From a virus, in IMG/VR virus record IMGVR_UViG_3300033802_000252, positions 77,891 to 141,890 of that record: DNA of 64,000 nt; one strand, 5' to 3'. This document shows, piece by piece, positions 10,519 through 15,724 of the stretch (position 1 is its first letter; every line of letters begins with the position of its first letter). The translations under genes were made by a program, and so were the position numbers. The notes beneath the pieces were generated by a model. The model did not search any database. It was not told where the DNA came from and saw nothing but the letters and a program-made list of their open reading frames with translations.

Positions 10519-11505
10519 ATGGATCTATTACTAGGAGGAAGTCCTTGTCAGGGTTTTAGCTTTGCAGGGAAACAATTGAATTTCGAAGATCCAAGAAGCA
10601 AGTTGTTTTTTGATTATGTTAAAGCGTTAAATATATTAAAACCAAAGTACTTTATTTTTGAAAACGTGAAAATGAAAAAAGAATCAGAGCAGATAATAAG
10701 TCAATATTTAGGAGTAGAACCTATTGAAATAAATTCTTCTCTTGTATCTGCTCAAAATAGAAGAAGATTATATTGGACTAATATTCCTGGTGTTGTGCAA
10801 CCGCAAGATAGAGGTATATTACTTAAGGATATAGTGTTAAATGATGCGTTCCCTGTTGTGATACATAATATTTATGGTGGCTTCAAAGAAAAAAAAGTTC
10901 GAGTATTCGAGGGAAAATCACCAACAATTAGAACCGCAGCAGGAGGAGGACATATACCTTATTTTGTTAAAAAAGATTTAATCCACAGCGAAAAAGCAAT
11001 TGAATATATGAATAAAGCTACAAGAGATGGTAGAGCGCATTGGGATTTTGGACATCATTTTGATATAAGAAATCCTAAGAGTGCTACAGTTGTCGCAAAT
11101 TTCTTTAAGGGTGTACCTTATAATGTATTTAAAGATTGGGATTGCATCAGAAAATTCCATCCTGTAGAATGTGAACGACTTCAAACTCTTCCAGACGGAT
11201 ATACTGAAGGAATTAGCAACACTCAACGATACAAGAGCATAGGGAATGGATGGACGGTTGATGTAATTGCTCACATATTATCTTTTATTCCTGATAAAAA
11301 ATTAAATAATGTTGTAAGTCTTTTTGATGGCATCTCGTGTGGTCAAGTTGCTTTAGAACGAGCAGGATTTACATATAAAAATTATTTTGCGTCAGAGATT
11401 GATAAATATGCTATCCATATAACTCAAAAGAATTATCCTAATACAATTCAATTGGGTGATGTCACACAAATTAATTGGGATGAATTTACGAAAAAACATG
11501 AATAA
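10519..11505 (+). CDS. DNA (cytosine-5) methyltransferase, circularly permuted
   Basis: Starts at motif IV (DLLLGGSPCQGFS), then ENV (VI), ECERLQT (IX), GNGW (X), and finally motif I (VSLFDGISCG), II (SEID) and III (GDV) at the C-terminus. Confidence 0.9.
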   Translation: MDLLLGGSPCQGFSFAGKQLNFEDPRSKLFFDYVKALNILKPKYFIFENVKMKKESEQIISQYLGVEPIEINSSLVSAQNRRRLYWTNIPGVVQPQDRGILLKDIVLNDAFPVVIHNIYGGFKEKKVRVFEGKSPTIRTAAGGGHIPYFVKKDLIHSEKAIEYMNKATRDGRAHWDFGHHFDIRNPKSATVVANFFKGVPYNVFKDWDCIRKFHPVECERLQTLPDGYTEGISNTQRYKSIGNGWTVDVIAHILSFIPDKKLNNVVSLFDGISCGQVALERAGFTYKNYFASEIDKYAIHITQKNYPNTIQLGDVTQINWDEFTKKHE

Positions 11506-11750: not shown

Positions 11751-12413
11751 ATGGAAAAATACATATGTAAAATTGATGGCAAAGAATTTACTGAGTATAA
11801 TGATCTACTTGATTATATTCAAAACACATATGTTGATGTTGTTGTTATTACAGACAAAGATGAAAATGGGCTGAACGTTGAGTCCATATATAAAAAGTTT
11901 AAAAGAGTAATGCCAGAGTATGTTAACATACGTGTCAATAAAGACAATGACTTAGATCGTTATCTTGTTAATATTGATTCCAATATATGTAACTTTTCTT
12001 TTTATATTGGATATAGCGAGTGGGAGTATTACCATAATGTATTTATCAATGTAGAAGATGCGATTAAATATTATCAAGAATTTTTTAAAACGGCGGATAA
12101 GATTATAGAAAAGGTTGAACAGGAATATAAACTGAAATTAAGCGTAAACCAATTATGGGAATCCCCAGGAGAAGGGGGACGAAGCATTCATTTTGTATTT
12201 GATCTCAATGGTTCAGAAGTGGGAGTGTATTATGATTTTGATTGCGATATTGATGAATTTATGGACGTCTTTAAGCAATATACAGAAAACGTTTTAGAAG
12301 GTAAATTAGAAAAAAACAATAAGGGATACTATACTGAATATAAAATTGGTGGGGTTTCAATTGATGGATTCATAAATAGAAGTAAGAGGGTAAGACTTGA
12401 GATTTTGGAGTAG
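11751..12413 (+). CDS. Hypothetical protein, paralog of 22354-23037
   Basis: Shared N-terminal KY...IDG..F and C-terminal IDG.....R..RLEI.E. Confidence 0.75.
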   Translation: MEKYICKIDGKEFTEYNDLLDYIQNTYVDVVVITDKDENGLNVESIYKKFKRVMPEYVNIRVNKDNDLDRYLVNIDSNICNFSFYIGYSEWEYYHNVFINVEDAIKYYQEFFKTADKIIEKVEQEYKLKLSVNQLWESPGEGGRSIHFVFDLNGSEVGVYYDFDCDIDEFMDVFKQYTENVLEGKLEKNNKGYYTEYKIGGVSIDGFINRSKRVRLEILE

Positions 12414-12427
12414 GGGGAGCACCATTA

Positions 12428-12517
12428 ATGAGTATTATCGTCGTTATTAAAGACAATGATATGGTTTGGGTAGGTTGTGATAGTCAAGTAACACGAATAC
12501 AAAAAACGACAAGGTAG
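12428..12517 (+). pseudogene. N-terminal fragment of an Ntn-hydrolase/HslV-like protein
   Basis: MSIIVVIKDNDMVWVGCDSQVT, then an early stop. Confidence 0.4.
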
Positions 12518-12576
12518 AGATTGTTGAAGAATAAATAATATATAAAATCAGAATTAAACAGAATGGGGTTTTAAAA

Positions 12577-12813
12577 TTGTTGGCTAGGATAAGTAAGGAC
12601 GATGTAATTGTTATTGATAATACATTTATTTTGGGTGAAGAAGCATATGATTATGCTCAATTAATAAATAATTATCCATTGGAACATGAGGACTATATAC
12701 AAGTATTAAAAGTGGTTGCTGAAGTTGGATTGAAGACAAGAAAGAGTGGAGAGCAAATTTCAAGTGAAATAAAAAATATATATAGTAATATTTTTAATAA
12801 AGAGGGGGTCTGA
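12577..12813 (+). CDS. Hypothetical protein
   Basis: TTG start with RBS GGGG, 78 aa. Confidence 0.6.
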   Translation: MLARISKDDVIVIDNTFILGEEAYDYAQLINNYPLEHEDYIQVLKVVAEVGLKTRKSGEQISSEIKNIYSNIFNKEGV

Positions 12814-12816
12814 TAA

Positions 12817-14301
12817 TTGGAGATTAATAAAGCATATCATATAGATTGTGTAGAGGGATTGAAACTATTAGCCGATAACTCAATAGATGCAATCGTGACC
12901 GATCCTCCCTATGAGCTAGGATTTATGGGGAAGAAATGGGATTCAACAGGAATCGCATATAATATTGATATGTGGAAGGAATGTTTGCGTGTCTTGAAAC
13001 CTGGTGGTCATTTGCTTAGTTTCGGGGGAGCGAGGACATATCATAGAATGACTTGTGCAATAGAAGATGCAGGATTTGAAATACGAGATCAAATTATGTG
13101 GATATATTCGCAAGGAATGCCGAAATCTCAAAATATTAAAAAGGCAATTGAAAAGAAGTCAAAATCATCAGAGTTAGCAGAACAATGGTTAGGATGGGAA
13201 TCAAATCTGAAACCAGCTCATGAGCCTATTGTTTTAGCACGTAAGCCACTAAGCGAAAAGACTATAGCAGATAATGTGCTTAAATGGAGCACTGGTGGAT
13301 TAAACATTGATGAATGTAGGATACCAACGGATTGGAAAAATGAGTATTCTGAAAGCTGGTTCAAAAGTGGTAGGGGTAAAACTATAACATGGAATGGTGA
13401 TGAATATAGAACTGATATGACTGCAGGAGATCGAATTAATTCAAAAGGAAGATATCCTGCTAATGTTATATTTGATGAAGAAGCGGCCAAGATGCTTGAT
13501 GAACAAAGTGGTATTTTAAAGAGTGATTCAAATAATGTTAGAAGCAAGATAGGCACATTTTTAGAGCATGGCGGTTTAGGTAAGCCAGGAGACATTCAAG
13601 TTGCCTACGGTGATTCAGGAGGAGCATCTAGATTCTTTTATTGTGCTAAGGCAACAAAGAAAGAACGTAATCAAGGATGTGAAAATTTAATAGTGTGGGA
13701 GAACGTGGAGTTGAACCCACTAATAGGAGAGTTAAGCCGACACCTAAAGGATATATTAGAGTATATGATGCAGAAACAAAAAAATACAGAATGGAACATA
13801 TTATCATTTGGGAAAGAGATTGTGGAAAAATACCCAAGGGATATGATATTCATCACAAAGATGGGGATAAAACTAACAACAATATTGGAAATCTTGAACT
13901 TGTTGATAAACTCACTCACAAAAGAATCCATTCGGGATGTTTTAGAGATGGTAATGGAGAATGGCATAAACCTTGCAGAAAATGTGGAGAAGTTAAACCA
14001 ATTAAAACAGAATACTATAAACGAAGAGATGGAATCTCTTCTTGGTGTCGTAAATGCTGTATTAGCAACGCTATTGAAAATAAAAGAAAAAGGAAGAGTA
14101 GGAAATATACATAGTACAGTAAAGCCATTAAAACTAATGGAATATCTAATTAAGCTTGTTACACCACCTAATGGGATTATTTTAGATCCATTCGCAGGTA
14201 GTGGCACAACATTGTTGACTGCCAAGAATTTAGGGTTTAATTACATAGGATTTGAAAAAGAAGAAGAATACATGGAAATCATAAATAAAAGATTAGCATA
14301 A
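12817..14301 (+). CDS. N6/N4 DNA methyltransferase (beta class) with a ~140 aa insert
   Basis: VTDPPY, SRFFYCAK...H.TVKPLKLMEYLIKLVTPP, DPFAGSG; the insert coincides with the nested HNH gene. Confidence 0.9.
   Translation: MEINKAYHIDCVEGLKLLADNSIDAIVTDPPYELGFMGKKWDSTGIAYNIDMWKECLRVLKPGGHLLSFGGARTYHRMTCAIEDAGFEIRDQIMWIYSQGMPKSQNIKKAIEKKSKSSELAEQWLGWESNLKPAHEPIVLARKPLSEKTIADNVLKWSTGGLNIDECRIPTDWKNEYSESWFKSGRGKTITWNGDEYRTDMTAGDRINSKGRYPANVIFDEEAAKMLDEQSGILKSDSNNVRSKIGTFLEHGGLGKPGDIQVAYGDSGGASRFFYCAKATKKERNQGCENLIVWENVELNPLIGELSRHLKDILEYMMQKQKNTEWNILSFGKEIVEKYPRDMIFITKMGIKLTTILEILNLLINSLTKESIRDVLEMVMENGINLAENVEKLNQLKQNTINEEMESLLGVVNAVLATLLKIKEKGRVGNIHSTVKPLKLMEYLIKLVTPPNGIILDPFAGSGTTLLTAKNLGFNYIGFEKEEEYMEIINKRLA
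13695..14114 (+). CDS. HNH endonuclease nested out of frame within the methyltransferase gene
   Basis: KGYIRV...MEH..IWE...GKIPKGYDIHHKDGDKTNNNIGNLEL....H..IH plus CRKC...WCRKC zinc finger. Confidence 0.85.
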   Translation: MGERGVEPTNRRVKPTPKGYIRVYDAETKKYRMEHIIIWERDCGKIPKGYDIHHKDGDKTNNNIGNLELVDKLTHKRIHSGCFRDGNGEWHKPCRKCGEVKPIKTEYYKRRDGISSWCRKCCISNAIENKRKRKSRKYT

Positions 14302-14366
14302 TTCAGTTAATACCGATATTTTATCTGAATAAAAATACAACATAAATTGTAAAAGGAGGAAAAAGT

Positions 14367-15104
14367 TTGTTTGAAATAAATAAAATATACAATGAAGACT
14401 GTCTAAAAACAATGAGGAGACTGCCAGACGAAAGCGTAGATTTAATAATTGCAGATCCACCCTACTATAAAATTGTTAAAGATGAATGGGATCATCAATG
14501 GGATACAATAGAAGAATGGATTGAGTGGCACAGGGGGTGGTTGGGGGAGTCAAAAAGAGTATTAAAAGACACAGGAAGTTTTTATTATTATGGTGGTGTA
14601 AGAAACATTGCACACATAAAGATTTTATTAGATGAGTATTTTGAATTTAGAAATTGGATTACATGGCACAAGAAAAGGGGTCGAGGAAGCAAAAGAGATT
14701 GGTTGTTTACAAGGGAAGAATTATTATTCTACACCAAATCTAACAACTATAAATTTAAAGTTATATATTCAGACCAAGTTGGAACTTCGAATGCAAGCAA
14801 AAAAAGATTTAGAGAAACTGGCAGAGGGCTAAGACTGTCCAATGTATGGAACGACATATTGGAAATGGGTTGGAACAATACTGGTAAATGTAAAATAAGT
14901 GCTGAAAAACCTGTGAAAATTGGACAGAGGATCATTGAGTCAGCAACGGACGAAGGGGACTTAGTGTATATTCCGTTTGCTGGTAGTGGGAGTGAAATTG
15001 AAGCTTCTATTAATTGCAATAGAAGGTATATAGCAAGTGAAATTAACAATGAATACATAGTGAACATTATTAACCCCAGATTACAAAATAAAAAAACACA
15101 ATAA
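14367..15104 (+). CDS. N6/N4 DNA methyltransferase
   Basis: IIADPPY, EKP, IPFAGSGS. Confidence 0.9.
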   Translation: MFEINKIYNEDCLKTMRRLPDESVDLIIADPPYYKIVKDEWDHQWDTIEEWIEWHRGWLGESKRVLKDTGSFYYYGGVRNIAHIKILLDEYFEFRNWITWHKKRGRGSKRDWLFTREELLFYTKSNNYKFKVIYSDQVGTSNASKKRFRETGRGLRLSNVWNDILEMGWNNTGKCKISAEKPVKIGQRIIESATDEGDLVYIPFAGSGSEIEASINCNRRYIASEINNEYIVNIINPRLQNKKTQ

Positions 15105-15124
15105 AACAGATGATTTAATGGAAA

Positions 15125-15346
15125 ATGGGAGGACAAAAGATGAAATTCAAATTCTTCAATGACACTGGAGCAGTAATAAATATACATCCTGCTACATTTA
15201 TTCATGGTTGCCAAGGGGATGACTCTCCTATTCCACCATTAGAAATTCGAGAGTTTAATTTACCAAAAGGAACATATCCAATGTTAAAATTGTGGAAGGA
15301 AAATATTATTTTCGTTTGTCCTGAGAAAGAGGAAGGGAGTAAATAA
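15125..15346 (+). CDS. Hypothetical protein, paralog of 30335-30577
   Basis: F.F.NDT...I.IHPATF..GC...P...E.R.F.LP.GT.PMLK.W shared. Confidence 0.7.
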   Translation: MGGQKMKFKFFNDTGAVINIHPATFIHGCQGDDSPIPPLEIREFNLPKGTYPMLKLWKENIIFVCPEKEEGSK

Positions 15347-15349
15347 AAT

Positions 15350-15724
15350 ATGAAAATTATCGATGGCAAAATTACTGAGTTTCAATATCCTGATGGATGG
15401 TATATGAGGATTGGTCAAGTGTATTCGAGTCCATATGAGCCTAATCACTTTCTGATTACAAGATTTGAACAGGATGAACATTCAGATGTGGAAGATATTC
15501 GTGTTTATTACAAAGAAGTGGATTGCAATAATTATAAGAACATTCTTATTGATGAAGAGCATTATCATCGTGCCTGGTGGATAAACGAAGGTAATTGGGA
15601 TTTGGAGCAAGAAGGGAAGATTACATTTGGAAATGGTAGTGAGATTAAACTAATGCCCACTAAGGATGGTATTAGAGGTAAGCAACGTGAGTATGCGTGG
15701 GGATTAGATTTAGCTAAAGAATAA
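15350..15724 (+). CDS. Hypothetical protein; C-terminus resembles a terminase-like fragment (NGSEIKLM...GIRGK)
   Basis: 124 aa ORF with RBS GGGAG. Confidence 0.6.
   Translation: MKIIDGKITEFQYPDGWYMRIGQVYSSPYEPNHFLITRFEQDEHSDVEDIRVYYKEVDCNNYKNILIDEEHYHRAWWINEGNWDLEQEGKITFGNGSEIKLMPTKDGIRGKQREYAWGLDLAKE

Follow-up and report, generated by a model that had tools for sequence, protein, structure and literature searches.

A complete gene for an HNH endonuclease lies inside a phage DNA methyltransferase gene, in another reading frame of the same strand, and the explanation that we favour, with a probability of roughly three in four, is that a mobile HNH gene replaced a loop of the methyltransferase and that both frames are read without splicing. 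The window, meaning the whole stretch of 64,000 nucleotides that was analysed, is part of a 148,616-base IMG/VR virus record from leaf-surface metagenomes, and the phage has a GC content of 34%. In the usual view, a homing endonuclease gene spares the gene it invades only by way of an intron, an intein or an intergenic position. According to the favoured explanation, a compact homing-type mobile HNH gene would have replaced the variable surface loop located just before the H-P-T-V-K-P motif. The nuclease would be read in the -1 frame from its own GTG at 13695, with its stop TAG placed within the methyltransferase His-Ser codons, and ribosomes starting from the TTG at 12817 would read straight across the approximately 142 inserted codons. 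This read-through would add a mostly helical excursion tolerated by the enzyme, thereby keeping motif IV, upstream, and the AdoMet-binding motif I, downstream, in one polypeptide, with neither RNA nor protein splicing being needed. From the comparative evidence given below, we infer that the HNH and methyltransferase proteins are both made and that the insert-bearing methyltransferase is active; the nuclease, in turn, would cut insert-free alleles to copy itself in.

Regarding the host gene, the N6_N4_Mtase family (PF01555) gives a single match over residues 23-491 of the 494-aa ORF (Pfam, E 1.4e-43), and the PHROGs assignments of both ORFs, as methyltransferase and HNH endonuclease, are consistent with Pfam. 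The confidently predicted core of the AF2 model superposes on M.MboIIA, CcrM and M.RsrI, with TM-scores by target of 0.52-0.78, and the motif order, from IV (DPPY) to X/I (H.T.KP, FxGxG), together with this fold, places the enzyme in the beta class. Motifs IV and I, which flank the insert, do not vary among the enzymes, whether these bear the insert or not. The identical methyltransferase protein is recorded on 5 contigs, and the runs holding the window sequence are leaf-surface metagenomes, with no RNA run among them. Other methyltransferase genes are located nearby: a second PF01555 enzyme, insert-free and of 245 aa (E 1e-38), is encoded directly downstream at 14367-15104 of the window, and a C5 cytosine methyltransferase ORF at 10519-11505, with motif IV (GGSPCQGFS) at its start and motifs I-III (SLFDGISCG...) in its C-terminal part, appears circularly permuted.

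The nested ORF (13695..14114) lies wholly within the methyltransferase ORF (12817..14301) and matches HNH_3 (PF13392) with an E-value of 5.5e-16 and 58.4 bits, against a gathering cut-off of 24.8. Thus, the ORFs, PF13392 and PF01555 agree with the sequence-only reading of this DNA, which had claimed a complete 139-aa HNH nuclease with a C-terminal zinc finger inside the methyltransferase ORF. An alignment of 24 homologs shows no variation at H53, H54, N62, N66, H75 and H79. For the nuclease, AF2 gives a model with a mean pLDDT of 88, whose best match among solved structures is I-HmuI (1U3E); searching the PDB with a profile of the HNH alignment yielded no match at E 0.01. The nuclease gene is probably selfish. 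Over the HNH gene, three frames are open in the window, namely those of the methyltransferase, the HNH protein and an antisense ORF of 184 aa (13671..14225, minus strand); the latter was rejected as a chance frame, since no more than about 6% of the related loci have it open. The features on which the analysis rests are listed in the table.

Table. Coordinates of the methyltransferase gene, the nested HNH gene and the insert in the window.
Feature	Position	Strand	Remarks
Methyltransferase ORF, beta-class N6/N4 DNA MTase	12817..14301	+	494 aa, TTG start, open through the insert
Shine-Dalgarno GAGGGGG of the methyltransferase gene	12802..12808	+	8 nt 5' of the TTG; read from the sequence
Methyltransferase catalytic motif IV DPPY, residues 29-32	12901..12912	+	No variation among 42 aligned homologs, insert-bearing and insert-free
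Sole Shine-Dalgarno-like word AAGGA ahead of the HNH start	13673..13677	+	17 nt, poorly spaced
Insert relative to the closest insert-free allele	13678..14103	+	142 codons; DNA and protein alignment with P0002/L296
HNH endonuclease gene	13695..14114	+	139 aa, GTG start, -1 frame relative to the methyltransferase
HNH catalytic core DIHHKDGDKTNNNIGNLELVDKLTHKRIH, HNH residues 51-79	13845..13931	+	Conserved residues in the homolog alignment
HNH C-terminal zinc finger CxxC...CxxC, residues 92-122	13968..14060	+	C94, C97, C118, C121 invariant (homolog alignment)
His-Ser codons CAT AGT of the motif GN.HSTVKP	14110..14115	+	Contain the HNH stop TAG (14112-14114)
Methyltransferase AdoMet-binding motif I DPFAGSGTT	14185..14211	+	3' of the insert; F459, G461, S462, G463 invariant

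Comparison with insert-free homologs defined the junctions to within a few codons. The closest homolog, P0002 (whose DNA is L296), is insert-free and 84% identical to the window in both flanks; it reads KKER-GEG-NNHPTVKP, compared to KKER-NQG-[CENL...KGRV]-GNIHSTVKP in the window, where the insert is located between SRFFYCAKATKKERNQGC and GNIHSTVKP. The distance from RFFY to H.TVKP is 19 residues in most homologs, all of them insert-free, compared to 161 residues in the window, and a third class of homologs has a loop of 28-33 residues at the same site, indicating that the loop taken by the insert, which directly precedes motif X/I, varies naturally. This is in line with the variable loop before H.TVKP to which the sequence-only reading had assigned the insert. 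The insert exceeds the HNH ORF by only a few codons. In most loci, the TAG falls at exactly the His-Ser place, whereas the insert-free alleles that were examined mostly have His-Pro (HPTVKP); the serine after the insert is therefore explained by the HNH stop codon being built into the His-Ser codons. The insert-free gp64 of the Mycobacterium phage BaconJack (L292:2435-3742) reads AHSTVKP, with serine where most insert-free alleles have proline, which could be natural variation or the footprint of a lost insert. For the methyltransferase-frame product of the insert, AF2 predicts a mostly helical excursion, with helices at residues 300-321, 341-364, 369-381, 386-399 and 403-425 and pLDDT values of 34-86 (means of 10-residue blocks). 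The metagenome run X4 covers the gene in contigs with a break at 13360/13363 and an overlap at 14086-14113, where the 3' junction of the insert lies; either a branching assembly graph or simply low depth may be the cause, and contigs allow no conclusion here.

Over 70 distinct loci of phages and metagenomes show the nested layout, with 31-52% GC in the measured set. Scans with an alignment of the insert gave 11 viral and 40 metagenome loci, 49 of them unique; in all 49, the methyltransferase frame is free of stops and the -1 frame encodes an HNH homolog. The third frame carries 6-31 stops in these loci, another count over embedded copies giving 4-27. The HNH homologs of related loci are recovered by phmmer with E-values from 1e-41 to 1e-71 (full-length copies), and 21-24 of the best 120 protein matches to the methyltransferase bear the same insert. 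As such a scan is biased toward an open methyltransferase frame, it was repeated with the HNH-protein alignment alone, and of the 25 closest HNH homologs, about 20 then prove to be embedded in this enzyme family at the site of the window insert, all with zero host-frame stops, including more GC-rich loci such as L218 and L229. The loci retrieved through the HNH frame alone also being free of stops, the open host frame is not due to ascertainment bias. Three HNH relatives (L230, L233, L235) are free-standing, and L228 and L232 are the sole degraded-looking HNH copies among the approximately 75 loci. A scan of the genome-contig collection with the insert alignment gave no match, and in tblastn of the HNH protein against 50,697 phage records, no match was better than E 1e-6, none was an embedded copy and none a close relative.

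The openness of the methyltransferase frame across the insert is not a matter of chance. Given the codon usage of the flanks, an HNH core should contain 4.3 methyltransferase-frame stops, but 50 loci show not a single one, and even in a conservative test, in which the codons of the window HNH gene were shuffled among synonyms, the methyltransferase frame stayed open in only 3.7% of the trials (P = 0.037). The sequence-only reading had noted that neither frame has a stop, and the stops in the methyltransferase frame of homologs that would have spoken against its interpretation are absent from every embedded copy. On viral contig L232 (1316-1840), a frame beside the degraded HNH remnant reads KTVKCTGNHPFLVLHEGSVTWTEARFISEGDEIL, which resembles a fragment of an intein (Hint), so that certain phages may have an intein at the insert site as well.

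The two frames differ in how they are conserved. Over the HNH core, the mean pairwise nucleotide identity by HNH codon position (1/2/3) is 0.655/0.741/0.448, and the C-flank that encodes the methyltransferase only has 0.64/0.71/0.33, which is the pattern of coding DNA; judged by codon position, the HNH protein shows purifying selection. In the methyltransferase reading of the insert, conservation is lowest at the second codon position, which is the opposite of a selected protein, and by this measure the methyltransferase frame within the insert is mainly just kept open. Considering the conserved C-terminal part of the enzyme and the always-open frame, ribosomal read-through of the insert is the best explanation. 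In addition, synonymous sites of the HNH gene are more conserved in the overlap than a null model predicts, with an excess of 0.107 compared to 0.03-0.06 in the flanks, and stop avoidance accounts for almost none of it. This excess could come from weak selection on residues of the methyltransferase frame, or from a younger, horizontally spread element.

The translation of the nuclease in the window may be weak, since it has a GTG start and no Shine-Dalgarno-like word other than a badly spaced AAGGA. Complete HNH loci have a start codon, usually ATG, located 1-27 codons (mostly 3-11) after the in-frame stop and followed by MGKRGPK-like or MRRKYG-like sequence, and many homologous loci have AGGAG or GGAGG 7-14 nt 5' of the ATG. 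These own start codons and the many well-spaced Shine-Dalgarno words indicate that independent internal initiation is the general rule across the loci. The HNH protein could otherwise be made as a fusion to the methyltransferase N-part by a -1 frameshift at A_AAT_TTA (13683-13689), a canonical X_XXY_YYZ heptamer in the methyltransferase phase right after the last HNH-frame stop, in a window whose HNH gene is without a good Shine-Dalgarno. However, any such heptamer is found nearby in only 13 of 52 loci, at scattered positions, and a start codon is retained at the homologous position throughout the loci, in many cases behind a good Shine-Dalgarno, making this the least probable of the explanations weighed here. 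A split enzyme, with an N-part ending in the insert and a C-part restarted after the HNH gene, the two then assembling, would recall those natural methyltransferases that consist of two subunits, but it needs no open frame across the insert; yet, no embedded copy has a stop in that frame, against an expectation of about 4, and such an enzyme is considered very unlikely.

The removal of the insert from RNA or protein has also to be weighed against read-through. A group I intron with an HNH ORF was rejected, as the Rfam scan of 12000-15500, at E-values up to 10, gave only two chance hits and no intron family, and the insert, which exceeds the HNH ORF only slightly, has no space in which a ribozyme core could fit. 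An intein was likewise rejected, because Pfam finds no Hint domain, the first residue of the insert varies (C/L/I/V), the C-junction is without His-Asn and the predicted fold is helical. Together, the lack of an Rfam family or a Hint domain, the variable N-junction and the missing terminal His-Asn bear out the statement of the sequence-only reading that no intron or intein signature is present. An unrecognised small ribozyme or an atypical mini-intein of approximately 140 residues might still be imagined, given that the insert has the size of a mini-intein, that serine follows it where insert-free alleles have proline and that cysteine is its first residue in some alleles. The same observations count against such an element, though: the serine codon is accounted for by the HNH stop, cysteine is one of several first residues, the fold is an all-helical bundle and not Hint, only a few codons lie beyond the HNH ORF, and an intron would not require an open host frame. 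Removal by such an element is thus rated as highly improbable, a little below the split enzyme, and read-through of the inserted codons remains the preferred reading.

The insert is distributed in a disjunct, patchy manner among closely related methyltransferases, and its mobility was checked on a host tree of 61 methyltransferases from which the insert columns were excluded; this tree left out other insert-free rows, rows without RFFY or H.TVKP and those with a spacing of more than 175 residues. The window pairs with the insert-free P0002 with a support of 100/100. Five changes of the insert state are required, that is, several gains or losses, and a single origin is recovered in 0 of 200 bootstrap trees. 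Constraining the insert-bearing rows to one clade costs 125 units of log-likelihood (delta lnL) with a p-AU of 0.003, so a single origin is rejected and the element was moved or lost several times; in an earlier AU test on a quick tree, the constrained tree had outscored a poor free-search tree. Moreover, the HNH core of the window is 61-73% identical to those of the 25 closest loci, and the methyltransferase N-flanks of these loci are only 38-57% identical to the window. As 17 of the 21 insert-bearing proteins fall in one host clade, much of the inheritance is vertical. Among the sampled loci there are no locus pairs with an HNH identity far above the flank identity, which speaks against very recent movement. 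No insert-less allele was found alongside the insert-bearing one in the contigs of four metagenome DNA runs, although contigs cannot show absence. Homing is thus suggested by the pattern of distribution.

Besides the mobile element as such, the overlap itself may be seen as an evolved persistence strategy, the helical excursion of the methyltransferase frame having been selected as a new domain. An indel that breaks the nuclease would then also break the methyltransferase, and selection on the host gene would shield the selfish gene. The synonymous-site excess, the confident AF2 helices and the near absence of degraded copies in the approximately 75 loci are hints in this direction, and the proposal is kept as a tentative, rather unlikely one. 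The nuclease may instead be a domesticated module that serves the phage, for example by cutting the DNA of co-infecting competitors or of the host, and the overlap would couple it to an anti-restriction methyltransferase. The strong conservation of an intact HNH gene across almost all of these loci, L228 and L232 excepted, would be expected from domestication, as would the concentration in one host clade and the lack of signs of very recent transfer among the sampled loci. Nevertheless, a homing element under continual transfer stays intact likewise, the distribution still requires several gains or losses, the closest allele does without the nuclease, and nothing links the specificity of the nuclease to the site of the methyltransferase, so that domestication is regarded as a somewhat more doubtful proposal than the former. 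Nothing was found in support of a methyltransferase that protects against the nuclease, as the sequence-only reading had suggested, and the insertion itself destroys the presumed target site. Its interpretation of a splicing-free invader is, meanwhile, supported by the comparative data on a mobile HNH gene read through within its host gene.

Among known systems, the closest is the ShiLan domain, a hidden out-of-frame HNH in the mycobacteriophage methylase gp65 (Arsenault, Gosselin, Gogarten 2025, Genes 16:178, PMC11855218), for which reason the idea of out-of-frame read-through is not new. As described there, the insert of 202 residues in gp65 is read through without stops and hides, in another frame, an HNH protein of 195 aa whose GTG is located 18 bp in and whose stop lies in the last four bases, with no intron or intein features and a disjunct distribution (PMC11855218); the ShiLan phage genome is NC_041988.1 (accession from PMC10453261). 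ShiLan gp65 and BaconJack gp64 share with the window enzyme the TDPPY..FMGK.WD, ALKP..EP..A.KP and RFF motifs and belong to the same family. Both elements have the HNH in the other frame, a GTG a few codons into the insert, a stop at the very end of the insert, a stop-free host frame, no intron or intein signal, a disjunct distribution and a predicted helical in-frame excursion, with I-HmuI as the best structural match.

Besides these similarities, there are clear differences. The ShiLan insert is placed between ALKPSYEPVCVAVKP and FEPIVVARKPL, approximately 150 residues upstream of the window site, and opens by repeating the 11 downstream residues in re-coded form, which the window insert does not. 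Its HNH protein of about 195 aa has zinc fingers on both sides, compared to the single C-terminal finger in the 139 aa of the window, and the two are 32% identical over the 50-residue catalytic core only. The hosts differ as well, being high-GC actinophages for ShiLan and a 34%-GC phage of leaf-surface metagenomes for the window. The window element was accordingly rejected as a ShiLan domain proper, considering the other site, the low core identity and tblastn of the HNH protein, which gave no mycobacteriophage match at E 1e-3. In L213 (346-816, 1486-1914) and L222 (361-945, 1435-1893), one methyltransferase gene holds two hidden out-of-frame HNH genes, of ShiLan type at the upstream ALKP..EP site and of window type downstream, with the host frame open through both.

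Other systems share single features with the window. Pacc40 gp60, from a divergent methylase family with a different site and a less certain HNH assignment (PMC11855218), resembles it, by the description in that paper, in having an out-of-frame DNA-binding or HNH-like ORF in a read-through phage methylase; two further publications that mention such hidden HNH elements both concern actinophages. I-HmuI and other phage HNH homing endonucleases have a similar HNH_3-type core with a small DNA-binding appendage, but they spare the host gene through a self-splicing intron or an intergenic position, whereas the insert of the window would be translated through within the host protein. Inteins with homing endonucleases are similar in being placed within a conserved region of the host protein and translated in one piece; unlike them, the window insert has no Hint domain and no conserved splice-junction residues, carries its nuclease in the other frame and is presumably never removed.

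Taken by its sequence relationships, the window element belongs to an already known kind, within which it forms a new widespread lineage at a new site. The read-through, out-of-frame solution is consequently not limited to actinophages, being present in more than 70 loci of very different base composition, and a different HNH lineage uses a second site of the same methyltransferase family, with some genes carrying both elements. Since gene callers never annotate the nested nucleases, such elements are systematically missed. Relative to the published case, the comparative evidence is broader, comprising an unbiased retrieval, codon-phase analysis, a stop expectation, a tree test and doubly invaded genes.
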